Below, one piece after another: positions 8,242 through 41,814 of a stretch of DNA of 64,000 nt. A program made the translations under genes and the position numbers. The DNA comes from a virus. The DNA is taken from positions 1 through 64,000 of IMG/VR virus record IMGVR_UViG_3300045988_121141, one strand, 5' to 3'. The notes under the pieces are model-generated. The model did not search any database, was not told the DNA's origin, and worked only from the letters and a program-made list of their open reading frames with translations. Within the stretch, counting starts at the first letter, position 1. Each line of letters starts with the position of its first letter.

Positions 8242-8565
8242 TTGCCTATCTTTGTGCTATTATTAATCAAAAAAAAATATAAGCACATGGGCAGATCAAC
8301 AGAGTACTACAGGACTCATCCCGAAGCCAGGAAGAAAAAGGCTAAAAAGGACAAGGAAATAAATGCCAGACCGGAACAGAAAGCCAAACGCCGAGAGCTT
8401 GGTCGTAAAAACTACGAAACGGACAAGAAGAAGGGTAAGGGCTGGAGAAAAGGAAAGGATTGTTCTCATACCAAGAACGGTCTTAGGTATAAATCAGTAA
8501 AAGCTAATAGGGGATCCAAATCGGATACGAAAGGTGACAAAAATGCAAGAGGATCTGAAAAATAA
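8242..8565 (+). CDS. highly basic Lys/Arg-rich protein (107 aa), possible nucleic-acid binding
   Basis: Composition: KKKAKKDKE..KAKRRELGRK..KKKGKGWRKGK. Confidence 0.4.
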   Translation: MPIFVLLLIKKKYKHMGRSTEYYRTHPEARKKKAKKDKEINARPEQKAKRRELGRKNYETDKKKGKGWRKGKDCSHTKNGLRYKSVKANRGSKSDTKGDKNARGSEK

Positions 8566-9667
8566 AATAGATATAAGAAGGATATTCAAGACCTCTAAAC
8601 AGGTTATGGAAGAGGCGTATGAGAATATCTTGAAATACAGGCGGGGAGAGCTTATCCCCGCTAAAACCGGATACGATTATATTGATGAGGCTTTGCTTGG
8701 AGGTATTTTTCCTCAGCACGCTATTGCCATAGGAGCCCGGCCATCTGTAGGTAAATCGTATGTGGCCCAAAAGATATTGGAAAATGTGATGAATCCGATG
8801 ATCAACCCGCAAGCAGAAGATTATTTTCTTGTTAATTGCGAGTTCGAAATGAATCCTCAAGATCTTCTTCTTCGCAGAATGAGCCAGGATATGAAAAAGC
8901 GAGCTCCTGAAATATTAAGAAGGCAAGATTCTAATACAGTAGAAGAGATGAGGATGTTTGAAATCCTTCAAGGTGAAATCAGGAATAATATAATATACAT
9001 CGATGCTCCGTGTACGGTAAAAGAGTTTGAGGCGGCTGTGTATCATATAGCTACCAAACACAAAGACAAACGTCTTATAATATTTAAAGTCGATCATATT
9101 GCTTTGATAAAAAGAATGGGGTTAGATCCTAAGTCGGCTATAGATGATTTGGTGGCGGTTATGAACGAAGCTAAATTAGTATATAAAAACATATTTTTCC
9201 TCATCATATCCCAATTCAACAGAGAGATAGAAGGAAGGATAAAAAGCCCACAAGAGCAGCCTCCGCGTCTTTCTGATTTTTACCAGTCTGATACGCTGGG
9301 TCAGTTATGTACGTTAATGATAGGTTTGCACAATCCTCGTAGGTACGGGCTGGATAAGTATATGATATTTGGGAAAGATTGGTATCAGACTCTTGATAGG
9401 TTTAAAACTGAAAACAAAACATCATTCAGGACAGCCGGACTGGTGTTTCATCATATACTGAAGGTAAGGCAAGTTAGTATGGAAGAGCTTACTAATACAA
9501 TCCACCCAGAGATCTTGCCGGGGCATGGATGGATGTACGGGGAGGGAGGGACGAAGTTCGTGAACCCCAACCAGCCGCCGACGCCGCCCAAGCTCTATAC
9601 TGTGGAAGACGTTACGGACAATCAGGAACAAGAACAAGAGACAAAAGAAGAACAGTCATTGTATTAA
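8534..9667 (+). CDS. DnaB-like replicative helicase (RecA-fold C-terminal domain)
   Basis: Walker A GARPSVGKS; DnaB H4-like motif LIISQFNREIEGR; 377 aa. Confidence 0.65.
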   Translation: MTKMQEDLKNKIDIRRIFKTSKQVMEEAYENILKYRRGELIPAKTGYDYIDEALLGGIFPQHAIAIGARPSVGKSYVAQKILENVMNPMINPQAEDYFLVNCEFEMNPQDLLLRRMSQDMKKRAPEILRRQDSNTVEEMRMFEILQGEIRNNIIYIDAPCTVKEFEAAVYHIATKHKDKRLIIFKVDHIALIKRMGLDPKSAIDDLVAVMNEAKLVYKNIFFLIISQFNREIEGRIKSPQEQPPRLSDFYQSDTLGQLCTLMIGLHNPRRYGLDKYMIFGKDWYQTLDRFKTENKTSFRTAGLVFHHILKVRQVSMEELTNTIHPEILPGHGWMYGEGGTKFVNPNQPPTPPKLYTVEDVTDNQEQEQETKEEQSLY

Positions 9668-10509: not shown

Positions 10510-11223
10510 ATGTACATCAATTTCAGACAACTTGCAGCATCAGACATGACTCCTAATGATCTTGCCAATCTTCTTGCCATAAGACAGAAGGATACGGTTA
10601 TGATCGAAGCCATGCCAGAAGAAGATGCTGGGAGATATATAGAGCTTGGCTTGGTTGAGAAATTAAAATCAGGCGTGATGAGATTAACCAACAAAGGAAC
10701 GTCTTTTGTAAATTATATAGAGACACCGGAAATGACAGACGAGGTTCTGGAAACGTTGAAGATTATGATAGGAATGTACGAATCATATTCAAAAGACATA
10801 GGTGTCAGCAGAAAAGAAGCAGAATCCAGATTGTGTTGGTTTATGGGTAACACCTCATTCAAGAAAGAGGTCATACTTCAGGTAACGGAATCTTATATAG
10901 CAGAGTCAGGAGATTATACAATGAGCTTATGTAACTTCATATGGAAACCGCCTTCTCAGGCTTTTTCAGTCCATATGAACCTTAAAAATTCAAAGCTCTT
11001 TGACTTAATAGCTGAAAAATTTAAGATCGCTACCGAGCCTTATTTGGAGTCTAAGAAGAATAAGGAAATGGATTGGTTGTTTGCCGTATCTAAATTGCCT
11101 ACGCCGCCGGCTAAAGGCAATCCGGATTATTTATTTACCGGAAGTTCTGAAACAGACAAAGAGAGATTGAAAAACATAAAAACATACTTATTTAACAAAA
11201 TTAGAAAGCAATGGAAAAAGTAA
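10510..11223 (+). CDS. hypothetical protein (237 aa)
   Basis: ORF. Confidence 0.5.
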   Translation: MYINFRQLAASDMTPNDLANLLAIRQKDTVMIEAMPEEDAGRYIELGLVEKLKSGVMRLTNKGTSFVNYIETPEMTDEVLETLKIMIGMYESYSKDIGVSRKEAESRLCWFMGNTSFKKEVILQVTESYIAESGDYTMSLCNFIWKPPSQAFSVHMNLKNSKLFDLIAEKFKIATEPYLESKKNKEMDWLFAVSKLPTPPAKGNPDYLFTGSSETDKERLKNIKTYLFNKIRKQWKK

Positions 11224-11462
11224 GAATCAGAAAGATAATAGAGGATATAATTATTACTCAGTTTCTTAATTCGGAAATAGATATAGTTCATGAAGAAGAT
11301 GTGACGTTTAAAGAACTTGGATTAGATTCTGTTGATCGAATTGAGCTTGATGTGATGGTGGAACAAAAATTCAATATTGTTATTATTGATTATGATGTGG
11401 AAACCATCAAAGATATGACTGATCTTGTTTACAAAATAATAACAGAAGGGTATGGGAAGTGA
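11211..11462 (+). CDS. acyl-carrier-protein-like protein (83 aa)
   Basis: Aligns by eye to ACP helix I/II: IRKIIEDII...FKELGLDSVDRIELDVMVEQKF (ACP: VKKIIGEQL...[22 protein letters not shown]) with the conserved DS(L/V)D Ser. Confidence 0.55.
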   Translation: MEKVRIRKIIEDIIITQFLNSEIDIVHEEDVTFKELGLDSVDRIELDVMVEQKFNIVIIDYDVETIKDMTDLVYKIITEGYGK

Positions 11463-11946
11463 CATAATTTTATGCATGGCTTTAATAGCGTCATTTGCTT
11501 TTGTTATACAGTTTTTGTTGTCGATATTAGGATCCGATCTGGATACGGATATTGACATTGACAGTGCTTCTGATTTAAGCATGTCTTTGTCGGACATCAT
11601 ATCATTCAAGGGCATAACACATTTCATCCTTGGATATAGCTGGACTACCTACTTTTCGGGTTCTCATTTAGTAGGGGTTGTGATAGGGTCGTTTTTCTTT
11701 ATCGTTTTGTTTTACGTATATAAATTACTTCTTAAGTTAAAACAAGAAATGGTGTACGAATGTCCGGAAGATTTAAATGGCAGAGAGGTGGAGATAGTGT
11801 TTAGATCGGGGAAGAATCATTATATGGTAAATATTTCGAAAAATGGAAGACAAGAGCAAATGAGAGTAAGATGCTTGTCTGGAAAAACCTACAAAAACGG
11901 TGACAAGGTGAATATAAAATATGAAGAAGGAGAATTAAGTATCTAA
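11452..11946 (+). CDS. NfeD-like membrane protein (YuaF-like short NfeD)
   Basis: Two TM helices followed by a small C-terminal beta domain; immediately upstream of an SPFH/flotillin gene as in yuaF-floT operons. Confidence 0.5.
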   Translation: MGSDIILCMALIASFAFVIQFLLSILGSDLDTDIDIDSASDLSMSLSDIISFKGITHFILGYSWTTYFSGSHLVGVVIGSFFFIVLFYVYKLLLKLKQEMVYECPEDLNGREVEIVFRSGKNHYMVNISKNGRQEQMRVRCLSGKTYKNGDKVNIKYEEGELSI

Positions 11947-11977
11947 TTTTTTTATCAACAATTAAATTTTAAAAGTT

Positions 11978-13678
11978 ATGACAACAATCATGTACGTGTC
12001 AGCTATCTTAGCTGTAGTGATTATTTTGACAATCATCGGAGTCTTATCAAGGTATCGTAGATGTAAGCCTAATCAGGTCTTGGTCGTTTACGGTAAGACA
12101 GGTGGGGAAAAGAAATCGGCGAAATTATATCATGGTGGAGCGGCATTTGTCTTGCCTATTATTCAAAGCTATGATGTTTTGTCAATGGAGCCTATGCAAA
12201 TAGATTGCAAGCTTACCGGTGCTTTGTCATCTCAGAATATTAGAGTAGATGTACCTACGACCATTACAGTAGCTATCAGTACAAATCCCGAAATCATGCA
12301 AAATGCGGCAGAAAGACTTTTGGGGATGGATACCGAATCTACTGAAAATCTTATTACGGACATCGTTTACGGTCAGATGCGTTTGATTATTGCTGAAATG
12401 ACAATCGAAAAACTTAATTCTGACAGGGATGAGTTTTTGGATAAGGCAAGAAAGAACATTGATAACGAGCTTAACAAGTTAGGTCTTTACCTCCTGAACA
12501 TCAACATCAGTGACATCAGAGATGAAGCCGGTTATATTATGAACCTTGGTAAGGAAGCTGAAAGTAGGGCTCTGAACGAGGCACAGGCTAATATCGAAGA
12601 ACAGGAGAAGCTGGGTGCTATTAAAATTGCTGTACAGCAGAAGGAAAAAGAAACGGCTGTGGCTAATACCAAAAAAGAACAAGAGATTCAAATTGCTTGT
12701 ACTGAAAAAGAAAAGGAGACAATAGTAGCTGAAACGAAGAAAGAAAAAGAAATAGCTTTAGCTTTAACCGATAAAGAGAAACAGATCGGTGTAGCTCAAG
12801 CAGATAGAGACAGGGCTGCGGTTATCGCAAAAACTTTAACCGACAAGGAATCGGCGATCGTAAGATCTAAGGCAGAACTTGAAGTAAATAAAGCCGAGGC
12901 TGAAAGAATGGAAGAAGTCGGAAAGAATAAGGCTGAAGCTGACAAGGAAGCAGCTATAGCAATACAAGACTCTGAAGCTCAGATTAAGAAGGCTGAGGCT
13001 GAGAAAAATGCGTCTATAGGATACAACAATGCCCAGAAGGAGGTTGCTGTGTCAGTATCAGAACTACAGATCATCAAAGCTCAATCAGAGAAGAAGGCCG
13101 GAGAAGAAAAAGTTAAATCGGAAGCGGCTGTAAAAACAGCAAAAGAGCTTGCCGAAAAAGAAGTGGAAGAAGCTAAGGCTAAGAAAGTTCAGGCTGCGCT
13201 TAAGGCTGAAAAGATTGTGCCGGCTGAAACCCAGAAGGAAGAGGCTATCTTGCAAGCTGATGCCGAGGCCGAGAAGATCAAACGCCGGGCTGAGGCTGAG
13301 GCAGCAGCACATTTGGCAAAAGCTGAGGCGGAGGCAAAAGCTATTCAGATGAAGCTGGAGGCAGAAGCCGAAGGTAAGAAAAAGTCGTTAATGGCAGAAG
13401 CCGACGGATTTAAGGCCATGGTGGAAGCAGCAGAATCCAATCCTCAGATCGCCATCCAGTACAAGATGGTTAATCAGTGGAAAGAAATTGCCGGAGAACA
13501 GGTTAAGGCATTTGAGCACATTAACCTCGGAAATATCACAGTATTTGACGGCGGTCAGAACAGTACCGGTAATTTCCTTAACAATGTTGTCAAGACCGTC
13601 GCTCCGGCATTGGGAGTCATTGATCAGCTTCCGATTGCAGATACTTTAAAGAAGTTAAAAGGAGATGACAAAAAATAA
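11978..13678 (+). CDS. flotillin-like SPFH/band-7 protein with long Glu/Ala/Lys-rich coiled coil (566 aa)
   Basis: N-terminal TM anchor, SPFH-like region (QVLVVYGKTGG...), long AEAEAKA / EKE-repeat coiled coil typical of FloT/flotillins. Confidence 0.75.
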   Translation: MTTIMYVSAILAVVIILTIIGVLSRYRRCKPNQVLVVYGKTGGEKKSAKLYHGGAAFVLPIIQSYDVLSMEPMQIDCKLTGALSSQNIRVDVPTTITVAISTNPEIMQNAAERLLGMDTESTENLITDIVYGQMRLIIAEMTIEKLNSDRDEFLDKARKNIDNELNKLGLYLLNINISDIRDEAGYIMNLGKEAESRALNEAQANIEEQEKLGAIKIAVQQKEKETAVANTKKEQEIQIACTEKEKETIVAETKKEKEIALALTDKEKQIGVAQADRDRAAVIAKTLTDKESAIVRSKAELEVNKAEAERMEEVGKNKAEADKEAAIAIQDSEAQIKKAEAEKNASIGYNNAQKEVAVSVSELQIIKAQSEKKAGEEKVKSEAAVKTAKELAEKEVEEAKAKKVQAALKAEKIVPAETQKEEAILQADAEAEKIKRRAEAEAAAHLAKAEAEAKAIQMKLEAEAEGKKKSLMAEADGFKAMVEAAESNPQIAIQYKMVNQWKEIAGEQVKAFEHINLGNITVFDGGQNSTGNFLNNVVKTVAPALGVIDQLPIADTLKKLKGDDKK

Positions 13679-13685
13679 ATACAAT

Positions 13686-13707
13686 GGCCCAAGGTTACAC
13701 TTGGGCC
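13686..13707 (+). terminator. hairpin after flotillin gene (ggcccaag-gttaca-cttgggcc), no clear U-tract
   Basis: 8-bp perfect stem 8 nt after stop codon. Confidence 0.3.
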
Positions 13708-13841
13708 TAATTGAAGAAATAAAAGCAGCATTCATAGATTTCCTGCCGGCAGGGACAGTGATTTTAAGTGCTTTACTAATTACGATATTTTTAACATGGA
13801 TTTTGGACAAGATTTAGAACCAGAAGAACTGACCAAGCATT

Positions 13842-14201
13842 ATGATCAGTGTTATGGAATTGATTTTGAAACAGAAGAAGAGGAGGATGAAGATTATGAC
13901 TGATGAGGAATTTGTATTGGATAATAAGAAAAAGGTTGTTGTAAGAAAAAGAATATCTTATTTAAACAAAGGGGATAAAGTATGGATCGTGTCTTCCGAC
14001 GGGTATCTACTACACACAGACGTAGTTAGAGCCGAACGCGGTCGATCTTATGTGGATATAGATGGGATTCTGTATTGGAAGCGAGGATTAGATGGCAAGC
14101 ATCGTAATCGTAATAACTACATGCAGTTTGCCATGACACCAGAAGACGGTAAGAAGTATGTCGTATATTACCCGGAAGGATTTAAAGACAATGACTTATG
14201 A
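13842..14201 (+). CDS. hypothetical protein (probable true start near 13897, MTDEEF, behind GAGGAGGA RBS)
   Basis: ORF; RBS-like GAGGAGGA before internal ATG. Confidence 0.45.
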   Translation: MISVMELILKQKKRRMKIMTDEEFVLDNKKKVVVRKRISYLNKGDKVWIVSSDGYLLHTDVVRAERGRSYVDIDGILYWKRGLDGKHRNRNNYMQFAMTPEDGKKYVVYYPEGFKDNDL

Positions 14202-15217
14202 TGGTCCCGGAAACGCATTTGCTATATAAGGAGTTTAATGGTGTGAAACGTCTTGCCATATCTTATTCCCAGATAGACACGTTTCTTACCTGTCCAATGA
14301 AATGGTATAAGACTTACGTAGAGGGCAAAAGGTCTACAGAAAAACAAGAAGCTACGTCTTATGGTACGGTTATCCATAAGACACTGGAATACTTTTTTAA
14401 GAACGGAAGGCAGCCTTCTGGCAAAGACCTTGGAGAAGCAATAAGTTACTATGCTTACCAAGAAGACATACCTTGGCAATCACCGGAAAATATGATGATA
14501 GCCATGAAACAATCTGGGGAGCTTCTTGCTTGGATTGTGGATCTGTTTAAAAAAGACGGCAATAGGTTTATGATAGCTGATAGTGATCTTAATCCTTGTG
14601 AGAAACTTATCAGACACGGCGCTATAGTTGGAGTCGAAGAAGATTTTGTGCTGCCGTACCGCCTTCCTAAGCCAGTTGACATAAATGGGGTAATTCATAC
14701 CCATGTGTACATAGTAGGATCAGTAGACCTTCATCTGGCTATAAAGAGCAAGAACGTAATTCACCATTATGTCATAGATTGGAAATCAGGGAATAAGGTT
14801 TTTGATTCTAAGAAGTTGGAAACGAATTTACAGCATCCTATATATTCGTTTTACATCTATAGAAAATATGGTGGGGTTCTACCAGATATGAACATCTATT
14901 TCTTTACCAGAACCAGGCAGTACCAAAAGGTTAAGGTGGATGAAGAACGTAAAACAAAATCTATAGAGATGCTAAATGACACTTTATCTAAAATGTATGA
15001 TTTTGAAGATAATAGTGTAAAAACATTTCAGGCATACATCCAGGGGGCAGAAGGAGCCAGATATAGCAAGCGGCGTGCCACCCTAAGCCAGCCTGTTCCG
15101 CAAAACAAGCTACCCTGCCCGTCGGCACTGTGTTATTATTGTGACTTTGGATTACATAACAAAAACGAATGCCCTTTCTCTTCGGATTGGGATCCGTCTA
15201 AAAAGATAAAACGATGA
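14198..15217 (+). CDS. PD-(D/E)xK nuclease of the RecB/Cas4 family with C-terminal Cys4 cluster
   Basis: N-terminal SYSQIDTFLTCPMKWY motif, VDLH...IDWKSG catalytic motifs, C-terminal CPSALCYYC..C Fe-S-type cluster. Confidence 0.65.
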   Translation: MMVPETHLLYKEFNGVKRLAISYSQIDTFLTCPMKWYKTYVEGKRSTEKQEATSYGTVIHKTLEYFFKNGRQPSGKDLGEAISYYAYQEDIPWQSPENMMIAMKQSGELLAWIVDLFKKDGNRFMIADSDLNPCEKLIRHGAIVGVEEDFVLPYRLPKPVDINGVIHTHVYIVGSVDLHLAIKSKNVIHHYVIDWKSGNKVFDSKKLETNLQHPIYSFYIYRKYGGVLPDMNIYFFTRTRQYQKVKVDEERKTKSIEMLNDTLSKMYDFEDNSVKTFQAYIQGAEGARYSKRRATLSQPVPQNKLPCPSALCYYCDFGLHNKNECPFSSDWDPSKKIKR

Positions 15218-22761: not shown

Positions 22762-23002
22762 AAACTTATTTCATATTCCTATTAGAATAGTTGAAAGGAA
22801 ATTAACTAATGGAGAGGTAGAATATTGGTGCCAATATCAAAACATTCTTGGGAAATGGAAAAACAGGATAAAATACGATATGTTTGGCATGGCGTGTTAT
22901 GCTGTTTTTTATTCATTCGAAGATGCGTATGAATTTAATTATGGTAAGAACAAAGAAGAAAAGGTAAAGGTAGTGGACTCTTGTTACAAGAAACGGTTTT
23001 AA
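22745..23002 (+). CDS. hypothetical protein (85 aa)
   Basis: Last plus-strand ORF before convergent terminator. Confidence 0.4.
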   Translation: MKLMLRNLFHIPIRIVERKLTNGEVEYWCQYQNILGKWKNRIKYDMFGMACYAVFYSFEDAYEFNYGKNKEEKVKVVDSCYKKRF

Positions 23003-23009
23003 TAATTAT

Positions 23010-23047
23010 AGCACCAATAGTTCTTGGTGCTATAATTGTTTTTTTTA
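23010..23047. terminator. bidirectional intrinsic terminator between convergent modules
   Basis: agcaccaa-tagttc-ttggtgct hairpin followed by T-run (attgtttttttta) on plus and A/T-rich on minus. Confidence 0.6.
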
Positions 23048-23065
23048 TTTGAACTCATATCGCAA

Positions 23066-23773
23066 TTATTTGGTTATAGTATTATTATATACAGGGTTAT
23101 ATCTATCAGAAGGATCTATTAGATACAGCTTTACGTCAGCTTTAAATACTATGTAGCTATCATCTTGTATATTAGACTGAATATGTATTATAGAAACAGT
23201 GTTTAACGATACTGTATTATTAAGTCTACCTTCTATATTGACATTGCTATCAACAACCCCCAGATTCCATTTTGAATCATCCTTGTAAAGAGCTTTATAG
23301 ATAGGGCTGCCAGGTGTCCCTTCATCTGTCTCCTCTTTTATTTCGTAGGTGTAATTCAGGTTATATAATCCAGGAACAACATTGTAAATAGACTCTGGAG
23401 CGTGATTATGATAAACTTTATATTTTTTGTAAGTAATAGGAGTAGAAACAAGAACAAAGTTAATGACAGGCAAACTAACGTGTAGAATATTATAATCATT
23501 TCCATTTTGTGGAGAAACAATTATAGCTATTTTATCTAATCCTTGAATATCTGTACTATTTTCAGTATATGTATCTATCAATTCTCTATTATTAGAGGGC
23601 ACGCCCCCTGAGATACTAATAGAAGAGATGGTTGGTTTTGGAGTAACGTAAATCAAAGGACTGGAGCTTACGACACCTACATTTTTTTCATCTACGAATA
23701 TGGTTCCGCCTATACAGTTGCTATTTATTACATATTCGTATAGCTTAATATCATTTTTGTATCTTCTTCTCAT
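23066..23773 (-). CDS. MRRRY-N-terminal protein, Asn/Ser/Thr/Tyr-rich beta-type (possible fibre/receptor-binding-like)
   Basis: ORF; N-terminus MRRRY shared with three other genes in window. Confidence 0.5.
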   Translation of the reverse strand: MRRRYKNDIKLYEYVINSNCIGGTIFVDEKNVGVVSSSPLIYVTPKPTISSISISGGVPSNNRELIDTYTENSTDIQGLDKIAIIVSPQNGNDYNILHVSLPVINFVLVSTPITYKKYKVYHNHAPESIYNVVPGLYNLNYTYEIKEETDEGTPGSPIYKALYKDDSKWNLGVVDSNVNIEGRLNNTVSLNTVSIIHIQSNIQDDSYIVFKADVKLYLIDPSDRYNPVYNNTITK

Positions 23774-23777
23774 AATT

Positions 23778-24395
23778 TCATAAAATTAATTCAGTAAAAG
23801 GACGGACATAATGTGAACTACCCCTTGAACCTGTATCCAAATGATCTCCTTGGATGTTTATATCATAATACCACGAATAGGAAAATTTTGTATTTCGAGT
23901 GGATGTCCACATTCTATTACTCATTATCGTACCTCCTACCATTAAAAGGCATTCGTTTATTTCATTCGCATACAATGATATCAAAAAAAACTCTCCGGCG
24001 CCACCTACATATCCATTTTGACCATTTTTAAATAAATAGTTATTAGCTTTATTAAAAGCGTAATCTGTATTACTGGTATCATATTCAAGATACGCATTCT
24101 GATTTTCACGCCCCCAATAATCCTTTTTAATAGTTCCCATATGAGAACTATCTTGTGCAAATATATTGTCTATTTCTCCATCCTTACCCCAACGAAATGT
24201 GCCAATATATTCGGTGGCTATAACAAAACACACTTTATCTACAAGAGCTATTCCATTGCATAGATCATTGGAATATCCTTTATTAGACCAATTTTCTTTT
24301 GTATATAATCCTCCATCTACATGTTGGATGTATATGCCTTTATTGATTATAAGCGAGGGATTTACCCCCATCCCTATTTGAAATCTTCGTCTCAT
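23778..24395 (-). CDS. MRRRF-N-terminal protein (start taken at internal MRRRF; ORF track extends to 24482)
   Basis: Internal ATG giving MRRRFQIG matches family N-terminus; upstream 29 codons look non-coding. Confidence 0.45.
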   Translation of the reverse strand: MRRRFQIGMGVNPSLIINKGIYIQHVDGGLYTKENWSNKGYSNDLCNGIALVDKVCFVIATEYIGTFRWGKDGEIDNIFAQDSSHMGTIKKDYWGRENQNAYLEYDTSNTDYAFNKANNYLFKNGQNGYVGGAGEFFLISLYANEINECLLMVGGTIMSNRMWTSTRNTKFSYSWYYDINIQGDHLDTGSRGSSHYVRPFTELIL

Positions 24396-24609
24396 GATTT
24401 TTGTTTGCAAGATAGCAATAATTGACAACATAAAAGAAACCGGTTCCCTATCATCTCTGACTGAGAACCGGTAAGAAAACAATTTCAGAAAAAATTAAAC
24501 CTACATAATCTTTCAAGTAAGAACAAAAAAACGTACAATCTACTCTTTGACGATGCTAATATAACATATTGGAATCATACAAAAACAATGCAAGTCCGAT
24601 ATTCTTCGT

Positions 24610-27600
24610 CTATTTGTAACTAACGTCATCGTCTCCTTCCGAATCAGGAGTAGCGCCGATGAAGAACATCATTGACTTGTTGTTTGTCTGCTGCCACCAA
24701 TTATAGGCGCGCGCTACGTCTTCCGGCGTCTTGATATTATACCATTGTTTGATAAACGTCTGTTTGGCGAGTTGCCTAAATAGCTTAGACTCTCCTTTGT
24801 ATGTACCGGATGTTACTTTATCAAGTGAATAATTCCTAAGATCGGTAAGATCCTTCAGCTTCCTTCCCATAACAAACGGGTCGTTAATGATATCTACAAC
24901 GTTAAGCTCCATAATAAACGGCATCTGTGAAGCTATTTCGTTTATGGTTCTGAATCCAACGTAAGATCCAAATTGAGTAAGCCAACTTTCTTCGTTTTCA
25001 TCATCATCACGCCATCCGGCAAGAAGCATGGATACGGCTTGCATGATAAGGAACGTGCCGGCATAGACACTGAGGCGTTTGAGATTAGTTTTTTCTACCT
25101 CATTCATATTGTCTTTATTTTCGTTCCAGGCATCTATGATGTTTTTCATACCAGACTCGGAAGCCAGGCTAAATGTTTTGGCTATCATATTCTTTAACGT
25201 AATTGACAACCCTTCCTCTTCTTGCATTGTTTGGAAATTGAAGCCACGTCTTTTCCACAGACGTTGAGCCGCCAGCACCAACCATCCTCGGTGGGCGGTC
25301 ATGAACCTGGCTATCCAGTTGCGCGATGCGGCAGTTCGGTTTTCTTCATTCAAAGATCCGTTACATATCTGCGACAAGCTACGGACTTGATTCCTGGTTA
25401 TAGCCATCTGGGTTTCAACTTCCTCAACAGTAACACCCGATCCTGGCTTTACAACCACCTTCCCATCCACGACGTCTACCATACTCCATAAAGTACGATC
25501 TTTTAATGCATTCCATTCTCTTTTTATGGTACTCTGTTCTTTATTGCGTTCTTTTTCCATCTTGAAATCTTGGAACGTGTAGAACCGACCTTTGTAATAA
25601 CGAACATTGTCCATAGTAGCAATCATAACCTGCGGATCAAGAGGGTAGTTCAGGATTTCCATAAAAGCATACATAGGTGAACGCATTAAGGTCCTGGCCA
25701 CTCTATTATATCCGGCACCATACATACGATTTCGGATATTGAATATCCCCATTCTCTCACCTATGACATATAATTTGCTTTTTCTATCTATGTCTCCGGT
25801 TTCTGCTATACAAGATGGCGCAAGACGGGAAAACTCAGCCGATGCGTATTTAAGGGAATCTTTGCTTATATACTGTCCTACGGCTGATTCCATGATGAGG
25901 TTGATATGGCCGGTAAGGGCGCCGGTAGCTGCCACAAACGGGGACAGTGCCAAGTTCATGACCGACATAAATCTTTCAACGGCCATCATTATCCTGGTAA
26001 GGTCTACTGTGTATCCACCGATGTTTACCGTCAGTTTTTTGGTGTTCATCCTAATGCCATAATAATGGTCATTGAAGAAGTCCCTGAACATCTGATATGC
26101 TTGGGTTGCTTCAGCTTTCTTCCCGCCTTCAAATTGCTTATTCAGCAACATCTGTTCCAGTCCTTGGGCAAGCTCTATAGACTTCTGCTTTTCGTTGTAT
26201 AACGATGACTGCATCATAAGCATCGAATAAGAGTAGCCAAAATCGTGAGATACATCATCTTGGTTTTCCAATTCATATATGTAGTATTTAGGTATAGACC
26301 TAAGTCTGTCTTCCGGATCATATACTTCCCCTTGTCTGGTTTTACCGTATAAAGAATCGTCTACTCTGTCCAGGCACAGATCTGATACAAAATTACGAAC
26401 CGTATTTTTGAAGTTAATACCCAATCCTTCTATACGTTCTATATCTTGTTTGGATATCTGTGGAATAGCATACAGATTAGGGCTCTGCTCTTTATATAGA
26501 TCAAGGGATTGTCTTTTTATTTCCTTGAGTTTTTGAATCATATTCCACTGCTCTACGTTTTTAGTAGCGACCTCATTACCATCAGCATCATACTTAATGC
26601 CGAAGTCGTTGAAATACGATTCATCACGATACAGGCTCTTCTTGGGCATACGATGACCATACCCGTGGTCTTTTACATAATCAGGGTTACGACCGCTATT
26701 TTCGGCCTCGGATTCAGCCACCCATGCTCTTGCAGGGTCAAAAGACAGGTATGATATATCCATACCATAATCTTGTGTGGATGTCCCATTCTGTACGTCC
26801 TTAACCATCTGCGCTACATCTATCTCACCTCGACCGATTTTGTCGATCATAGCCGCATATCCAGTAGGCGCCATGCGTTTATAGTACGAAAAGACCTGGC
26901 TCCTGGCAAATTCATTAACGATATCGTTCACTTCAGCTACTCCGTTATCGTGTCCAAATATGTCAGACATCTTAGCTCTAACCGCATTCCTAAAATCTCT
27001 ACGATCTAGCTTTTTATCTATTCCCAATTTTTCTGACAAGTAGTTGGTTTCAGAGACGGTAAACATATATCTGTTATCTTGAGCCATGAATAACTTATCT
27101 CTAAGAGCCTGAATCCTTTTGGCTTTTTTGGCAGTAGTATGACGCTGTGCAAACTGCCATTCAATTTCCTTAGAGTCAGCAAGAGCATTTAAATAAGACT
27201 GATTTACTTCGTTTTCAGCCTTACTGCTTTTAGTAAGGTATTTATCAATATCTTCAAGACCCACCATCTTAGCATAATCTATCAAAATAGCGTAATCGGC
27301 TTCAATAGCTTCAGATGCGGCCCTAAAAGCATCTCTTTCAGATGAGGTAAATGTCGCTTCATTAATTTCTCCGATATCAGCCACATCTCGGTTGTTGCCG
27401 ATTATTTCCTTGATAATGGCCTTATTTTTTTCTATATCTTTTACAATAGAATCCACGTCAGTCGCATCTCTATCACTTGTCGTAGAACTAATGATATCAT
27501 GCGCCATTTTAAGATACGAAGCCTTGTTATTTGATTCGGTACGTGCCGACTGCTCCGATTCTATGTCATTCCAAAACCGATCGTTAAATGACAGGTGACC

Positions 27601-30600
27601 CCCCAACATAAGCGTCTTCAGCGCAGCTTCCCCTCCAGACTCACGCTGAATCGTTCTCAATCTTTCCAAAAATGATTCTGATACGGCATTAGTGACATTA
27701 TTTGATTCTTTTCTCCAAACTTCATTTATGGCTTGTATTTCTTTAGCCATCTTAAGTTGGTCGCCGGTTTTTTCAACACGTCTGGTACCAACATATATGT
27801 ATTCCGAAGCCGCTTCCTTACGTTGTTTACGAAGCAGTCCTTCTTCTTCGTAGTTACTACTCTTATAGTAAGCAACCTCATCAAAATTACCACCGCTATC
27901 AATAAAAGGCTGCCTCAATATCCGTTTTTGCCGGGAAAGAGCATTAAGATACTCTTTAGTTGTTTGAGAAACCGGATGCCCTAATTCTTCTTCGGCCTTT
28001 TTGTATATGGATTCCATTCTTGTGGCATAACTTTCACTAAATTCCAATTCTGAATTTTCAGCATCCCACTTTTCCATCTGCTCCGTATAGATCTTTTCCT
28101 GCTCGATGGTAAAAATATCGGTATTAACCCTATCGGACGATGGTTTGAATTTAGCGTTTTCAGTAACCGTATTTCCATCCTTGTCAACTACTTCTCTTTT
28201 AAATACGTAATTACGGTTATTGTCAACCACATCATTTATTTCTTCTTCTGATATCTCTATGTTCATGGCAGTCGCAAACGCTCGCATCTGCGCCAGCTTC
28301 TTATTACGATCGTATTTAGCCATATCAAGAGCACTACGAAGGTAATTAGAAGTTTTGCCGTCTACTCTCTGAAGCAGTTTTTCAAATTCATATTTGTTAA
28401 AACCATGCTTTTTCGCATATGCCAGGAAGTCGGATATGGCGGGCTGGGCATTCACCATCGCATTGTAATTGTCTTTGGCAATCATAGCTCCAAGAGCGTT
28501 ATTGAACGGGCTGGAAGAATGCTCTAATATACCAAACCACCTACTTATCCAAGAGACATCATGTTGAACTTTGTCAAAAAATTCTTTTACTCTCTTTACC
28601 TTATCTGCCGGCACATGAAGTTCATTCATTAACTTATCAAGCAACGTACTTTCATCAAGGTCTTGTACTGATTTAATATCAGACTGAATACCATTGATGT
28701 CGGCAATGACGGTATTGATCCTATTTGTATAATCCTGCTTTTCACGTTCATCAAATTCGGTACTTCTGTTACGGATATATCCTCGAAGATCGTTCATGAT
28801 CGGAAGAACCTGATTGTTGATAATATCTACGTTCTTTCGATCATTGGTATTGAAGTGAAGCTTACCGTCTTTGGTATCACCATGAAGGATGGTGTTCACC
28901 ACATTACTTAAGTATCTGACCTGAGCTTCGGCTGTGGAGATCATGCTGTTCATGGCAGCCGCCATCTCATTCTTGTCTATTTCGGTCTCTACCTTATTTA
29001 TCTTATCTTCTATGGTCTTAAGCTGAGCAAGGGTCATAGACGTAGTTACAGCCCTATCAGAGCTTATCTGACGTAAGTCTCTTAATGTTTTTCTTAGTGA
29101 TCTGATCTTGGACTCAAGAAACTTGTTCTTGTTCATAGAAGAAAGGGAGTATAATGTAAAGTCATTATCCTTTAACAGAGAGGTGTCAAATCCTTTATCT
29201 ATGTCAGTAATGGCAAGATCACGAATGTTTTTAATAACGTTATTCAAATCTTGTCTTTGGGTTGATAAAGCTGATTTAAGCCAGCTTACGATTCCAGAGA
29301 AAAGCTGCCGGACGCGCCCCAGGAAGGAGGTGGGCTCTACCGGCGCCTGTGCTGTGCCGGTCTGCATCTCCCTGGCGAGGATCTTTCCAAGAATTTCTCT
29401 CCTAACAGCATTATCAAGCTCAGCTCCTTCATATACTTTACCGTATGTATTATAATACTGACCTGCATATTGGTTCCACTCTTCCGTACCTTCCACATCT
29501 TGCAGAACAGCCTCAACAGCATTCTGATCTCTGTATGCCTCTACAAGGAAGTGGGCTGTTTCTTCTACTAAATCAGATAAAGTAGCATCTTCACCAACTG
29601 CTATTACGTTATTGGCAATATCCGCCAATGCCTTAGCAGAAGGTTCATGCCCGTATTTGGTTTGGTACTTCTCTATATAGTCGGTCATACCTATGACGCT
29701 AACGCCAAGAGTTTTCAGTATCTCGACAATAGAATTTCGTTGGTCACGTTCCTGCCTGCTATAATCCGATACGATCTTAGCTTTAGTATCAGCATAAAGA
29801 TCGTTGTCTTCTAATATGAATGAAACTACAAGCGCATCAAAATGATCGTACTTGGCGTCCAATTCATTGTATCTTCCTGACTTAAGATCGTTCTTTATCT
29901 GCTCCCTGCTAACCCTTTCCGTTCCTCCGGTGGCGAGCCTCATAGTCACCTTACTGTTATCCAACGAGCTTATGGTTATCATACCTTGGTCGTTCATGGA
30001 AACATCGGAACCAAAATGATTACGGAGCTCGGTGTAGGATAAGGCTGAATTGAAAAGTCTAATTTGTCCTGTATGACCTTCTCCTGTAAGATAATAGCTT
30101 CTTGTTTCAGGATCGAATATCTTAGATCCGGACAAAAGACCTTTCTTTATAAGGTAGTTAATTATACCACCTTTTGTTGATAAAGAAGTAGAAGCAGAAG
30201 CGGTCATGACCGGTATAAAAGATTTGGGATTATTAAGAACATACCTTCCAGCTTTGTAAGTAATGTCTGCCACGCCATCCCAGGCAGATTCTTGAACGGT
30301 GCCTGATAAGAATCCTATTCTAATATCATTCCCGCCAGAACGAAGAGCTTCTCCGTAATCTTCAAATAATTGATTACGATCGCTCATGAAAAACAAACGA
30401 GGCTCTCCGGTCTGATACGTTACACCCACAGGATTAGAATCTGTCTGTGGTAACTCTTCTGGGCTAAATATCTTAAGACCGTCTTTTATAACCATATAAT
30501 TAACACCCTTATCCTGTACCATAGATACGGGAGTGAAGTCCGAAGATATAGCATCTTGTAAATACTGACCGGCGTCTATTCCAGGTCCTTCCGGTACGGA

Positions 30601-31023
30601 AATACTTGACGGAACCATAGCATCCACCAACATAATATTATCACCCAGATCTTGGCTGTAGAATCCAAAGCCCGATTCTCGGATTTCATAAGGTGCATCT
30701 GATTTTGACACAAGAACAGGATTACTCATCTTAGAAGCCTTATCCAGCACCCTTTCTCTATAGGCTTCCGGAATAAGATCGATGTTGGATTTTACCTTAT
30801 TATAAGCCGGTTTGTTGATAGGCACTCTCTTTCTCCAGTCGCCAAAAGCCTTTAAGAACTTATTAGAAAATACGGTTTTAAAAACAGTAGTAGCCCGCTC
30901 CCTATTTTCCATAAGAGGAATAGATGCTATTTTATCAAACAACATAGACCTGTCCCCTGATCTGGTAGAGACAGAAACAACTTTCTTTTTATTATCTCTT
31001 TTAATAATACACGTTGATACCAT
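24610..31023 (-). CDS. giant virion/ejection-associated protein (2137 aa), function unknown
   Basis: Uninterrupted 6.4 kb ORF; TAccTTTG promoter-like box about 30 nt upstream. Confidence 0.8.
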   Translation of the reverse strand: MVSTCIIKRDNKKKVVSVSTRSGDRSMLFDKIASIPLMENRERATTVFKTVFSNKFLKAFGDWRKRVPINKPAYNKVKSNIDLIPEAYRERVLDKASKMSNPVLVSKSDAPYEIRESGFGFYSQDLGDNIMLVDAMVPSSISVPEGPGIDAGQYLQDAISSDFTPVSMVQDKGVNYMVIKDGLKIFSPEELPQTDSNPVGVTYQTGEPRLFFMSDRNQLFEDYGEALRSGGNDIRIGFLSGTVQESAWDGVADITYKAGRYVLNNPKSFIPVMTASASTSLSTKGGIINYLIKKGLLSGSKIFDPETRSYYLTGEGHTGQIRLFNSALSYTELRNHFGSDVSMNDQGMITISSLDNSKVTMRLATGGTERVSREQIKNDLKSGRYNELDAKYDHFDALVVSFILEDNDLYADTKAKIVSDYSRQERDQRNSIVEILKTLGVSVIGMTDYIEKYQTKYGHEPSAKALADIANNVIAVGEDATLSDLVEETAHFLVEAYRDQNAVEAVLQDVEGTEEWNQYAGQYYNTYGKVYEGAELDNAVRREILGKILAREMQTGTAQAPVEPTSFLGRVRQLFSGIVSWLKSALSTQRQDLNNVIKNIRDLAITDIDKGFDTSLLKDNDFTLYSLSSMNKNKFLESKIRSLRKTLRDLRQISSDRAVTTSMTLAQLKTIEDKINKVETEIDKNEMAAAMNSMISTAEAQVRYLSNVVNTILHGDTKDGKLHFNTNDRKNVDIINNQVLPIMNDLRGYIRNRSTEFDEREKQDYTNRINTVIADINGIQSDIKSVQDLDESTLLDKLMNELHVPADKVKRVKEFFDKVQHDVSWISRWFGILEHSSSPFNNALGAMIAKDNYNAMVNAQPAISDFLAYAKKHGFNKYEFEKLLQRVDGKTSNYLRSALDMAKYDRNKKLAQMRAFATAMNIEISEEEINDVVDNNRNYVFKREVVDKDGNTVTENAKFKPSSDRVNTDIFTIEQEKIYTEQMEKWDAENSELEFSESYATRMESIYKKAEEELGHPVSQTTKEYLNALSRQKRILRQPFIDSGGNFDEVAYYKSSNYEEEGLLRKQRKEAASEYIYVGTRRVEKTGDQLKMAKEIQAINEVWRKESNNVTNAVSESFLERLRTIQRESGGEAALKTLMLGGHLSFNDRFWNDIESEQSARTESNNKASYLKMAHDIISSTTSDRDATDVDSIVKDIEKNKAIIKEIIGNNRDVADIGEINEATFTSSERDAFRAASEAIEADYAILIDYAKMVGLEDIDKYLTKSSKAENEVNQSYLNALADSKEIEWQFAQRHTTAKKAKRIQALRDKLFMAQDNRYMFTVSETNYLSEKLGIDKKLDRRDFRNAVRAKMSDIFGHDNGVAEVNDIVNEFARSQVFSYYKRMAPTGYAAMIDKIGRGEIDVAQMVKDVQNGTSTQDYGMDISYLSFDPARAWVAESEAENSGRNPDYVKDHGYGHRMPKKSLYRDESYFNDFGIKYDADGNEVATKNVEQWNMIQKLKEIKRQSLDLYKEQSPNLYAIPQISKQDIERIEGLGINFKNTVRNFVSDLCLDRVDDSLYGKTRQGEVYDPEDRLRSIPKYYIYELENQDDVSHDFGYSYSMLMMQSSLYNEKQKSIELAQGLEQMLLNKQFEGGKKAEATQAYQMFRDFFNDHYYGIRMNTKKLTVNIGGYTVDLTRIMMAVERFMSVMNLALSPFVAATGALTGHINLIMESAVGQYISKDSLKYASAEFSRLAPSCIAETGDIDRKSKLYVIGERMGIFNIRNRMYGAGYNRVARTLMRSPMYAFMEILNYPLDPQVMIATMDNVRYYKGRFYTFQDFKMEKERNKEQSTIKREWNALKDRTLWSMVDVVDGKVVVKPGSGVTVEEVETQMAITRNQVRSLSQICNGSLNEENRTAASRNWIARFMTAHRGWLVLAAQRLWKRRGFNFQTMQEEEGLSITLKNMIAKTFSLASESGMKNIIDAWNENKDNMNEVEKTNLKRLSVYAGTFLIMQAVSMLLAGWRDDDENEESWLTQFGSYVGFRTINEIASQMPFIMELNVVDIINDPFVMGRKLKDLTDLRNYSLDKVTSGTYKGESKLFRQLAKQTFIKQWYNIKTPEDVARAYNWWQQTNNKSMMFFIGATPDSEGDDDVSYK

Positions 31024-32688: not shown

Positions 32689-32964
32689 CTATAAATTTAA
32701 TATTCCGTTTTTACCAATATGTTTCTTTTCTTCTTCAGTAGGCCATTCTTTCTTGAACTTACCATGCCACGTTCCAGGAACTACCACCACTTCGCCTCCC
32801 TTACTATATTCAATAGCGGCACATTCAGAACAAAGAGGCTTGCCTTCATATCCCTTTAGCGACTTATCGTAAATACGATTCTTACAAGGTCTTATAAGAG
32901 CCCAGTAATATGATGTGGCTGTATTATCTATACAGCCACATTTTGAACAAACAAACAAACTCAT
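32689..32964 (-). CDS. zinc-ribbon protein (91 aa)
   Basis: CSKCGC...CSEC. Confidence 0.4.
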   Translation of the reverse strand: MSLFVCSKCGCIDNTATSYYWALIRPCKNRIYDKSLKGYEGKPLCSECAAIEYSKGGEVVVVPGTWHGKFKKEWPTEEEKKHIGKNGILNL

Positions 32965-33839
32965 CCCGCAATCTCCCAGTCATTAGACATAATATCATGT
33001 TCGGTTGGATTCCAATTTGATGCTACTTTTTGACCTGTATCTACCATCAATATATTTACGTCAGATTCTACAATAAACATACAGATATACTTTTTACCCC
33101 AATCGATTCTTTTTATCTTACGACCTAATTTAAGCTGTTCTAAAGCCTGTTCGAATGTCATGCCACGACGAGGCAGTTTGAGATACTTTTCAAGTCTGTC
33201 GGCAGCTTCATTTGGTGTATGGCCATCGTATTCGAAAGCGGTTTCTCTTTCAGGAACATCAAACAAATCCCAGTATTTGCTTTCATAGTGATTAGATACC
33301 TGACCGGTAGGTAGGATCGCCATCACAATAAACCAATCATCAGAACCGAAGCATTTTTCTCCATCGCTGTGTCTCCTTGATTTGCAAACTTCAACCTGTC
33401 CGTTTCTGGCTAATAGATTAAAGAAGGCGGCGTTATACAACATGCGGTACCGATACAATTCATTGAAAGTATGGTATCCATCAGAGACTTCTCCCACGTC
33501 TACAGGCTTCTTGTTTTGAATACTACCCAAAATATTCTCTATATAGAGCTGTATTTTATACATACCCATTTCGGTGTGGCCGTATTTGTTCAAGATATTA
33601 TTGACATCGTATTGTATATTAAAATCTTTTTCAAATTCTACTTCAGGATGATTAGGATAGTAGTAATCTACTGATGCTTCTAACACGGACTTTACGTGTT
33701 CCATTACCCTCGTAGCATCATCATGTTTAAAAAAATGCTTAATTCTTTCAACGAATTTAATATCTTCGTTGATTGCTGATTCGAACTCTTCTTTTGTCAT
33801 CACTCTAATTACATCTTTTTTAAAATCGTCTAATCCCAT
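32961..33839 (-). CDS. two-domain protein with C-terminal DUF2829 (Tad2-like, anti-Thoeris family) domain
   Basis: C-terminal ~75 aa: MTFEQALEQLKLGRKIKRIDWGKKYICMFIV...SNWNPTEHDIMSNDWEIAG matches the DUF2829 pattern (F.EAL..LK.GKKV.R.GW......NxWxP...D.la.DWe). Confidence 0.5.
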   Translation of the reverse strand: MGLDDFKKDVIRVMTKEEFESAINEDIKFVERIKHFFKHDDATRVMEHVKSVLEASVDYYYPNHPEVEFEKDFNIQYDVNNILNKYGHTEMGMYKIQLYIENILGSIQNKKPVDVGEVSDGYHTFNELYRYRMLYNAAFFNLLARNGQVEVCKSRRHSDGEKCFGSDDWFIVMAILPTGQVSNHYESKYWDLFDVPERETAFEYDGHTPNEAADRLEKYLKLPRRGMTFEQALEQLKLGRKIKRIDWGKKYICMFIVESDVNILMVDTGQKVASNWNPTEHDIMSNDWEIAG

Positions 33840-41274: not shown

Positions 41275-41814
41275 CTATAAAATCGACTTATACAATGACG
41301 GATCCCAAACTCCTTCTATATAAATCTCTGGGAAACTCAAACTGCCATCACGAAGAGTGGTAACTTTCAAACTGGGAATGTTAAAAACAGTGCTAACATC
41401 ACTAAACTCACCATTCAACTTAATAGCATTTCCACTATTATCAGCTTCATAATAATAATAACAATAATTTTCATTAAGACTCGGATCATATTCGTACCAA
41501 TATGTTAGATCTTGCATATGGTCTTCTATATTACCAATTTTATTTCCACCTAATATAAAAATACCATTATTGCTATGATGATAAACCGTAGATTCATAAT
41601 TACCATAATTCCAGTCACTATTAAACACTATATCACTGACATCGGAATCATGATCTTTTAATACAGGTCCTATATGTATATGAATTTTATTAAACTGACA
41701 TACATAAGGTCTTTTTCCTCCAAGCCTTTTTATCTCTTCATTAGATAACTTATTATAACATCCTCCCACAAAATTATCCGCAGCATTAAAAAATCTCCTT
41801 CTCATACTCAACAC
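41275..41814 (-). CDS. MLSMRRRF-N-terminal protein (179 aa), Asn/Tyr-rich
   Basis: ORF; start overlaps last codons of the 2214-aa gene. Confidence 0.5.
   Translation of the reverse strand: MLSMRRRFFNAADNFVGGCYNKLSNEEIKRLGGKRPYVCQFNKIHIHIGPVLKDHDSDVSDIVFNSDWNYGNYESTVYHHSNNGIFILGGNKIGNIEDHMQDLTYWYEYDPSLNENYCYYYYEADNSGNAIKLNGEFSDVSTVFNIPSLKVTTLRDGSLSFPEIYIEGVWDPSLYKSIL

Follow-up and report, generated by a model that had tools for sequence, protein, structure and literature searches.

A phage-borne NfeD-like/flotillin gene pair related to the chromosomal pair of gut Bacteroidales, with an attached acyl carrier protein gene, in an epsilon crAss-like phage

Introduction

A stretch of 64,000 nucleotides (nt) from IMG/VR virus record IMGVR_UViG_3300045988_121141 (positions 1 to 64,000 of that record, referred to here as the window) contains three consecutive genes that predict an acyl carrier protein (ACP), a small membrane protein and a flotillin with an SPFH domain. 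Bacterial flotillins and their NfeD partners are widespread, but little is understood of what they do, particularly in Gram-negative anaerobes of the gut. The question raised by this locus is whether the genes form a single functional unit, as was proposed in a reading made from the sequence alone, which took them for a phage-encoded trio acting on host membrane organisation or lipid metabolism, and, if they do not, where they came from and what a phage may gain from them.

Comparison with bacterial and viral loci showed that, at the level of sequence, the second and third genes are a diverged phage-borne copy of a chromosomal NfeD-like/flotillin pair of gut Bacteroidales, to which an orphan, phage-specific ACP gene is attached at the 5′ end. 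The names ACP and flotillin are already present in GenBank record OR575929. The NfeD-like assignment, the origin of the pair in a host operon, the restriction of the ACP to phages and the presence/absence polymorphism of the flotillin gene are new.

Gene order and source phage

The ACP gene (11211..11462), the NfeD-like gene (11452..11946) and the flotillin gene (11978..13678) all lie on the + strand as open reading frames (ORFs) that overlap or are closely spaced, and the three coupled ORFs described previously are thus present. Overlaps are 13 nt between the upstream gene and the start of the ACP gene, 11 nt between the ACP and NfeD-like genes, and 14 nt between the flotillin stop and a short downstream ORF, and a 31 nt A/T-rich gap separates the NfeD-like gene from the flotillin gene. 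The setting is that of a phage replication module, as had been proposed, with a DnaB-like helicase gene upstream (8534-9667) and genes for a PD-(D/E)XK exonuclease (14198-15217) and a helicase downstream. Between 8000 and 16500 on the + strand, the Bacteroidales-type −7 motif TAnnTTTG has a sole intergenic copy, upstream of dnaB at 8247, and the trio is probably co-transcribed with the replication genes. Sigma-70 promoter-like sites (31, with 23 ± 4.6 expected, in a scan ill-suited to Bacteroidales promoters) and terminator-like sites (9, with 5.3 ± 2.4 expected) were not above background.

Over its entire length, the segment 8500-15500 of the window shows 96.8% identity to phage csAssE-Sib [GenBank accession number OR575929.1], an epsilon crAss-like phage from the human gut with a complete genome of 151,256 bp (Babkin et al. 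2024, PMC11054128). In that record the three products are named 'acyl carrier protein', 'transmembrane protein' and 'flotillin family protein'. The main text of PMC11054128 makes no use of the words flotillin, acyl carrier, NfeD, SPFH or membrane, and a literature search found no paper pairing 'crAss-like' with 'flotillin'. Parabacteroides is the likely host genus, because sequences similar to csAssE-Sib are reported from Parabacteroides distasonis and P. merdae genomes (PMC11054128), and because Parabacteroides flotillins, at ~70% identity, are marginally the closest to the phage protein.

The NfeD-like membrane protein

The product of the middle gene, 164 amino acids (aa) in length, had been described as NfeD/YuaF-like with two transmembrane (TM) helices and a small C-terminal beta domain. 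It has no significant direct sequence match in Pfam, PHROG, NCBIfam or PDB, and homologues recovered with a word index were limited to close phage relatives. An exhaustive profile search returned 415 cluster representatives, mostly of 160-180 aa, that match over their full length. In an alignment of 76 diverse members of this family, two reach the NfeD family PF01957 (best E 6e-5). The family profile matches the soluble domain of YuaF weakly but across the whole domain (E 0.33), and alignment of the family to the same domain with hhalign gave an E value of 2e-4 and a probability of 46%. A fold search of BFVD, a viral structure library, found a full-length match of 34% identity that carries the UniProt name 'NfeD-like C-terminal domain-containing protein'.

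The AlphaFold2 (AF2) model has a predicted local distance difference test score (pLDDT) of 72.5 overall and 82-88 in the C-terminal domain. It consists of a helix at residues 2-25, a disordered acidic loop, helices at 52-69 and 72-101, and a six-stranded beta domain of the OB type from about residue 110 to the end (~110-164). The beta domain stands as first described, and resembles the OB-fold beta-barrel of solved NfeD soluble domains. Two strongly hydrophobic segments (residues 1-30 and 67-96), predicted as TM helices, precede the soluble domain; the two-TM description needs a small correction, as the model places three helices in the membrane region. Hallmarks of the subfamily are a DxDxD acidic loop, found in 67 of the 76 members, and a following SFKGxxHF motif, found in 58 of 76 (window positions 11530-11590, residues 28-46). 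The run of alternating aspartates resembles a cation-binding loop.

The gene is located directly upstream of the flotillin gene, in the same orientation, in 83 of 83 phage loci and 81 of 82 bacterial loci, the sole exception being a truncated contig, and the adjacency to an SPFH gene extends to distant members (L082-L084). Given the family profile, the structure model, the synteny and the viral homologue named in UniProt, the protein appears to be a short NfeD-like protein by fold, architecture and gene context; formal membership of PF01957 did not follow, as there is no direct match to that model. The NfeD/YuaF-like identity therefore holds at the level of fold, synteny and family.

The flotillin

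The predicted 566 aa flotillin comprises an N-terminal membrane anchor (residues 1-28), an SPFH/Band_7 domain (~29-215), an Ala/Glu/Lys-rich coiled coil (~216-475) and a C-terminal Flot domain (~476-559). Both profile matches exceed their cutoffs, with 91.7 bits for PF01145 Band_7 (E 7.6e-26, cutoff 23.6) and 39.3 bits for PF15975 Flot (E 8.3e-10, cutoff 27, residues 450-559). Solved flotillin-1/2 chains were matched, human flotillin-2 [PDB 9bq2] at 8e-23. Ala, Glu and Lys make up 22%, 19% and 16% of residues 196-475, and the hydrophobic segment formed by residues 1-28 is a predicted membrane anchor. The earlier description of an SPFH flotillin with a long EA-rich coiled coil was therefore accurate. 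The score against NF058507, the equivalog model for Bacillus FloT, was 144 bits where the cutoff is 700, and the phage protein was classed as a Bacteroidales-type flotillin and not as a FloT ortholog. By analogy with the solved flotillin complexes that it matches in sequence, it would be expected to assemble into an oligomeric membrane cage or microdomain.

Flotillin length varies among phage copies, from 404 to 577 aa in viral loci and from ~408 to 659 aa in the protein database. Most of this variation arises where blocks of the Ala/Glu/Lys-rich coiled coil have been gained or lost in frame (window 12600-13400; P0148, P0159; L046, L071, L072), and P0148 is without a coiled-coil block of ~85 aa. 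The height of SPFH cages is set by the coiled-coil region.

Relationship to the chromosomal pair of Bacteroidales

Species-representative genomes were scanned with the flotillin alignment, the 76-member NfeD-like alignment being too diverse for this purpose. The scan yielded 80 chromosomal loci from Bacteroides, Phocaeicola, Parabacteroides, Prevotella, Leyella and Xylanibacter, and the phage flotillin shares 62-67% identity with the chromosomal proteins by tblastn, or 66-70% over aligned columns. Flotillins 82% and 76% identical to that of the window are on phage contigs, where the same order of an ACP gene, a gene for a ~165 aa protein and the flotillin gene is found between the same replication genes. 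Flotillins of 62% and 49% identity are on contigs rich in bacterial housekeeping genes, and there a 165 aa homologue of the middle protein precedes the flotillin, without an ACP.

The bacterial flotillins are 85-95% identical among themselves across families, and the phage clade lies outside all of those sampled, with Parabacteroides marginally closest. One flotillin of Phocaeicola vulgatus (L152), ~72-75% identical to the other Bacteroidales flotillins, may be a divergent paralogue or a replacement. The anchor (54% identity) and the coiled coil (58%) of the phage flotillin have diverged further from the host proteins than have the SPFH and C-terminal domains (80%), and the NfeD-like proteins of phage and host share 33-43% identity.

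The parallel with the yuaF-floT operon drawn in the sequence-only reading is correct, and a nearer comparison is provided by the NfeD-like/flotillin pair present in essentially all sampled gut Bacteroidales. The phage and chromosomal pairs share the two-gene order, the short gap and the flotillin architecture, and the NfeD-like partners share their length, the DxDxD loop, the SFKGxxHF motif and the OB domain. They differ in that the phage version has an upstream ACP gene and a downstream 50 aa membrane ORF, neither of which was seen in the bacterial loci examined, and in that the chromosomal pair sits with housekeeping genes whereas the phage pair lies amid replication genes.

The close resemblance of the flotillin to Bacteroidales chromosomal genes could point to misassembled host DNA, or the ORFs could be unreal, but there is next to no chance of either. 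An identical gene arrangement flanked by phage replication genes was found in the complete 151 kb genome and on >160 independent viral contigs (up to 155 kb), and also in deeply diverged lineages in which synonymous sites are saturated. The phage copies form a clade of their own outside the bacterial copies and are under strong purifying selection. An assembly chimera or host DNA, named at the outset as what would undo the interpretation, was thereby ruled out, and the trio is phage-encoded.

The acyl carrier protein

The first gene predicts an 83 aa protein with a pI of 4.35, which carries the phosphopantetheine-site motif LGLDS40VD. It scores 26.4 bits against PF00550 PP-binding (gathering cutoff 20.8), and its ortholog in the diverged phage lineage L089 scores 32.7 bits. 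Matches were also found to PHROG 5934 'acyl carrier protein' (1.5e-8) and, at E ≤0.01, to 60 distinct solved ACP sequences in PDB (best 5.9e-6). The motif aligns with the LGADSLD phosphopantetheine site of the Plasmodium falciparum ACP [PDB 3gzl], Ser40 corresponding to the Ser of the DSL motif. The ACP identity and helix II motif recognised from the sequence alone are thus upheld, with Ser40 in the context of a phosphopantetheine site. The motif, in the form LG[LF]DS[VILA]D, is found in 82 of 82 phage loci with a detectable ACP ORF, and its Ser is invariant. The protein is small and acidic, with 20 Asp+Glu to 10 Lys+Arg. Its best score against the NCBIfam AcpP models (TIGR00517 / PRK00982) was 29.4 bits, below their cutoffs of 66-106, and it is best regarded as a divergent ACP rather than an AcpP ortholog. 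One exact ACP sequence of this lineage occurs on at least 1,000 contigs.

An ACP-like ORF was found in 82 of 83 phage loci selected by their flotillin and in 0 of 82 bacterial NfeD/flotillin loci, and no close relative was found in any other deposited phage. Among the matches listed from a Pfam scan of the 164 ORFs of the whole reference genome there is no phosphopantetheinyl transferase (PPTase), acyltransferase, ketosynthase/synthase, adenylating enzyme/ligase or thioesterase, and the deposited annotation of that genome names no partner enzyme. Consequently the ACP, if active, must depend on host enzymes for its modification and loading, as far as can be predicted. Nothing beyond the ACP domain speaks for the role in lipid metabolism that had been proposed, and the protein is a separable add-on to the NfeD-like/flotillin pair.

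Selection and natural loss

The ratio of non-synonymous to synonymous substitution rates (dN/dS), calculated between the window and the close lineage L091, was 0.39 for the ACP gene, 0.012 for the NfeD-like gene, 0.049 for the flotillin gene and 0.03-0.06 for neighbouring genes. Population-wide values were 0.48 for the ACP gene, 0.053 for the NfeD-like gene and 0.026 for the 237 aa gene located upstream. Constraint on the ACP is therefore ~10 times weaker than on its neighbours. In the comparison with the deep lineage L089, where synonymous sites are saturated, the ACPs are 35% identical in amino acids, the NfeD-like proteins 62% and the flotillins 82%. The dN/dS values for the NfeD-like gene (0.012-0.08) and the flotillin gene (0.049) argue that the pair is functional when present.

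Phage loci were at first chosen by flotillin similarity, and that sample was thus biased to genomes that carry the flotillin. In it, the ACP gene is interrupted in 7 of 81 loci, by four TAA stops and one TGA at three different codons and by two frameshifts. Stop-codon recoding was rejected as an explanation given this mixture of stops and positions. None of the 7 genomes with a broken ACP gene is among the 3 whose flotillin is truncated, and every one of these genomes retains an intact NfeD-like gene. This sample made the ACP seem the gene most often lost, an effect of selection bias, as became clear on resampling with the 237 aa gene as an unbiased anchor, in which the flotillin is lost far more often.

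Among the 78 usable contigs selected by the anchor gene, the trio is intact in 51, and an intact flotillin gene is absent from 24 (~31%). The same clean deletion accounts for 15 of these 24, with other deletions in 4 and premature stops in 5. The ACP gene is disrupted in 3 of 78 contigs, which with the first sample puts breakage of this gene at 4-9% of genomes, and the NfeD-like gene is disrupted in 2 of 78, both by large deletions, and the ACP gene is kept in genomes from which the flotillin has been deleted. The clean deletion (window ~11950-13789; loci L178-L180, L202, L204, L213, L218, L225, L226, L228, L232, L238, L244, L245 and L251) removes exactly the flotillin gene and the 50 aa ORF. 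Its junction, located by comparing the flotillin-less contigs L179 and L218 with the window, is within an A/T-rich direct repeat. The left breakpoint, TAATTTTT, is in the A/T-rich intergenic spacer (11947..11977, no strand assigned), and the right copy, TATTTTTAA, is at ~13785-13792. On a tree built from 1.4 kb of flanking sequence the 15 contigs are scattered over some six distinct positions, so that the deletion must either have arisen repeatedly or be passed on by recombination. In all 15 the NfeD-like gene is undisrupted, with a dN/dS of 0.084 in the 9 that could be scored.

In other assemblies with phage context, the N-terminal part of the NfeD-like protein is fused in frame to the C-terminal part of the flotillin at no fewer than six different junctions, and two out-of-frame deletions and a single ACP-NfeD fusion were also found. 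The variants (P0020, P0028, P0031, P0033, P0046, P0047, P0009, P0013 and P0044; L175-L177) mark this short block as a deletion hot-spot. Taken with the 24 of 78 anchor-selected contigs that have no intact copy, the fusion junctions identify the flotillin gene as an optional accessory and not a core function. The proposal of a functional trio is weakened by these results, the ACP being absent from the bacterial loci and ~10 times less constrained, the ACP and flotillin being lost independently, and the flotillin being so often defective.

A possible role for the module and its alternatives

The locus appears, on balance and with some reserve, to hold a host-derived and conditionally useful membrane-scaffold module, not an obligate trio, that supplements or re-tunes the flotillin scaffold of the host. 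The genes would be transcribed together with the replication genes, and the N-terminal anchor of the flotillin would insert in the cytoplasmic face of the host inner membrane, where the coiled coil and the C-terminal Flot domain would let the protein oligomerise as a cage or microdomain of the SPFH type. This cage would serve as the docking site of the NfeD-like protein, with its membrane helices and OB domain, as in NfeD/SPFH pairs that have been solved and studied. Supplementing or re-tuning the host scaffold during infection could affect membrane order, membrane integrity or the clustering of membrane machinery. Infections by crAss-like phages are typically long and often non-lytic. Any benefit would be conditional, since the flotillin is under strong constraint where it occurs but a sizeable minority of wild genomes can dispense with it. 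Where the phage flotillin is missing the NfeD-like gene persists, which suggests that its product may work with the host flotillin, still 80% identical to the phage one in its SPFH and C-terminal domains. Manipulation of host membrane organisation by the phage, as originally proposed, is plausible by analogy with other systems.

Several points weigh against this interpretation. The steps from membrane insertion onward are modelled on other SPFH/NfeD pairs, and the phage is uncultured. Because the flotillin of the phage falls outside every Bacteroidales flotillin sampled, its function may have diverged, and with only 33-43% identity between the NfeD-like protein and the host versions, cross-talk with the host flotillin is uncertain. 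Neither the window protein nor its orthologs from L089 and from a bacterium matched PF01957 at E ≤0.1. That the flotillin is so often lost could also mean that it is mildly deleterious or nearly neutral. The argument for co-transcription, a simple search for TAnnTTTG, is weak, and the tight ACP/NfeD-like overlap conserved in both lineages argues that the ACP may be more than a bystander.

Other roles can be envisaged for a phage flotillin. A cage of the phage flotillin and NfeD-like protein could capture or modulate FtsH or another membrane protease, as HflK/C does in Escherichia coli, so that phage regulators are stabilised or destabilised and the choice between lysis and persistence is biased. 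SPFH cages that enclose FtsH, and links between flotillin and FtsH in Bacillus subtilis, are established, and the CII/HflKC logic of phage lambda is a precedent for control of lifestyle through proteolysis. Strong constraint on a gene that some genomes can do without would also be in keeping with a lifestyle regulator, and csAssE-Sib encodes a repressor and anti-repressors proposed by the authors to serve in switching from lysogenic to lytic growth (PMC11054128). This control of proteolysis is nevertheless unlikely, as the module is linked to no gene for a protease or protease adaptor, the phage protein is of the flotillin type and not the HflK/C type, and the short NfeD-like protein has no ClpP-like protease domain of the kind found in long NfeD proteins. 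About as unlikely is a dominant interference in which the phage flotillin co-assembles with that of the host by way of the conserved SPFH and C-terminal domains and, through its diverged coiled coil and anchor, poisons or re-targets the scaffold and so disables an envelope-stress or membrane-repair response that restricts phage production. The mosaic divergence of the flotillin is of the expected kind, since host proteins are 86-96% identical among themselves in the regions where the phage protein has diverged, and the coiled coil is polymorphic in length among phage copies. In B. subtilis, SPFH proteins are reported to recruit membrane-stress proteins (PMC8581546). However, the coiled coil is the fastest-evolving region in any flotillin and the mosaic may reflect weaker constraint, and a cognate NfeD-like partner encoded by the phage suggests a self-contained complex.

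Superinfection exclusion or competition between phages, in which the membrane proteins would alter the inner membrane against injection or replication by competitors and the module would be of the moron type, its value set by the local phage community, has a still lower probability. Presence/absence polymorphism combined with strong constraint when present is typical of conflict genes, the membrane proteins are probably expressed with the replication genes, and the genome has other conflict genes, including those for two proteins with Tad2-like domains. Against this, none of the three proteins matches a PADLOC defence model (E ≤0.1), a result on which a defence-system reading of the trio was also rejected. 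The module derives from a housekeeping-like host operon, and we know of no exclusion system that uses a flotillin. It is very improbable that the three genes encode a single lipid-handling machine, the functional trio of the sequence-only reading, in which holo-ACP charged by the host delivers acyl chains at phage flotillin microdomains and membrane lipids are remodelled. The 11 nt ACP/NfeD overlap is kept in two deeply diverged lineages despite ACPs only 35% identical, the phosphopantetheine-site Ser is invariant and the protein is acidic, as type II ACPs are (pI 4.35). This machine is disfavoured because the ACP is absent from all 82 bacterial operons, its constraint is relaxed (dN/dS 0.48 compared with 0.05 for neighbours) and losses are independent, genomes with a broken ACP gene being different from those with a truncated flotillin and flotillin-deleted genomes retaining the ACP; the lack of a PPTase, acyltransferase, synthase or ligase among the matches listed for the reference genome points the same way. 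An extended form, to which we give an equally slim chance, has the ACP, NfeD-like protein and flotillin, perhaps together with the 237 aa and 50 aa proteins, as a lipid-remodelling platform built by the phage, on whose cage host-charged acyl-ACP would dock and feed acyl chains to a microdomain defined by the phage, and in genomes without the phage flotillin the phage ACP and NfeD-like protein would hijack the flotillin cage of the host. If true, it would provide the first example of physical coupling between a carrier protein and an SPFH scaffold, and of a phage that re-tools bacterial membrane microdomains.

Comparison with other known systems

The yuaF (NfeD2)-floT (yuaG) operon of B. subtilis differs from the phage pair in its low sequence similarity, evident from the score against the FloT model and the missing direct Pfam NfeD match, in its host phylum and in having no ACP. 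In Pyrococcus horikoshii, the long NfeD protein PH1510 is the operon partner of the stomatin PH1511, which it cleaves with an N-terminal ClpP-like serine protease. The phage NfeD-like protein lacks a protease domain and is paired with a flotillin, not a stomatin.

Among 50,697 deposited phage records searched by tblastn, 11 have flotillin homologues, and csAssE-Sib is the only close one. SPFH proteins have occasionally been noted in other phages in the literature. The 'flotillin family protein' of Vibrio phage KIT04 and an SPFH lipoprotein of phage GIB1 are likewise SPFH-domain membrane proteins of lytic-type phages, but are only ~30% identical and were independently acquired. No NfeD-like or ACP neighbour of the KIT04 gene was detected, and this phage was ruled out as an independent example of an ACP-flotillin or NfeD-flotillin link. 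The ACPs of PHROG 5934, a family in the category 'moron, auxiliary metabolic gene and host takeover', are small acidic PP-binding proteins like that of the window; the reference genome of the window phage is distinguished by having no accompanying lipid or polyketide enzymes among the matches listed.

Neighbouring genes and other features of the window

The anchor gene (10510..11223, + strand) predicts a 237 aa protein for which no match was found in Pfam, PHROG, NCBIfam or PDB, including profile searches of PDB and NCBIfam, and its single-sequence AF2 model is unusable (pLDDT 34.6). Its overlap with the ACP gene is kept in the diverged lineage L089, and on this gene arrangement a partnership between the 237 aa protein and the ACP is possible. 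Downstream of the flotillin gene, the 50 aa ORF (13665..13817, + strand; 'hypothetical protein' in OR575929) has a predicted C-terminal hydrophobic helix (hydrophobic segment at residues 19-50) and matches no family. Versions of 50-52 aa are kept in diverged phage lineages, and the ORF was not seen downstream of the flotillin gene in the two bacterial loci inspected for it (L092 and L093). It is removed along with the flotillin in the common deletion.

Further from the trio, a + strand replication/early block extends from position 1 to ~22,800 and meets a long − strand block with very large structural genes (e.g. 24610-31023 and 41808-48452), and coding strand and GC skew switch at window ~23000-24600. 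On the − strand at 32964-33839, a gene for a 292 aa protein in which a WDGH domain (1.6e-36) is combined with a Thoeris anti-defense 2-like (Tad2-like) domain (1.1e-12) is probably an anti-defence gene, and the reference genome encodes a second Tad2-like/DUF2829 protein. In a diverged phage lineage, a few genes downstream of the trio, one genome carries a gene for an 820 aa NAMPT/NAPRTase (NAD salvage) where another has a TnpB/IS605 OrfB gene (L090 12880-13707 compared with L089 13180-13707). The downstream ResIII/Helicase_C helicase, 473 aa in the window, is enlarged in L177 (6882-8480) to at least 817 aa and includes a Hom_end_hint (intein/homing endonuclease) domain that the window copy does not have.

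Implications

One of the commonest phage lineages of the human gut keeps a diverged flotillin/NfeD copy under strong purifying selection. The gene annotated in GenBank as 'transmembrane protein' can be upgraded to an NfeD-like flotillin partner, and a Bacteroidales NfeD subfamily is defined that is largely missed by Pfam (2 of 76 members detected). The adjacent ACP gene should not be taken as a sign of phage lipid metabolism. Loss of the flotillin from ~31% of genomes, often via the same clean deletion, constitutes a ready-made natural experiment, for metagenomes already available allow variants with and without the flotillin to be compared as to their host species, their persistence and their abundance. 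The phage pair may thus provide a handle on the role of flotillin in Bacteroidales.

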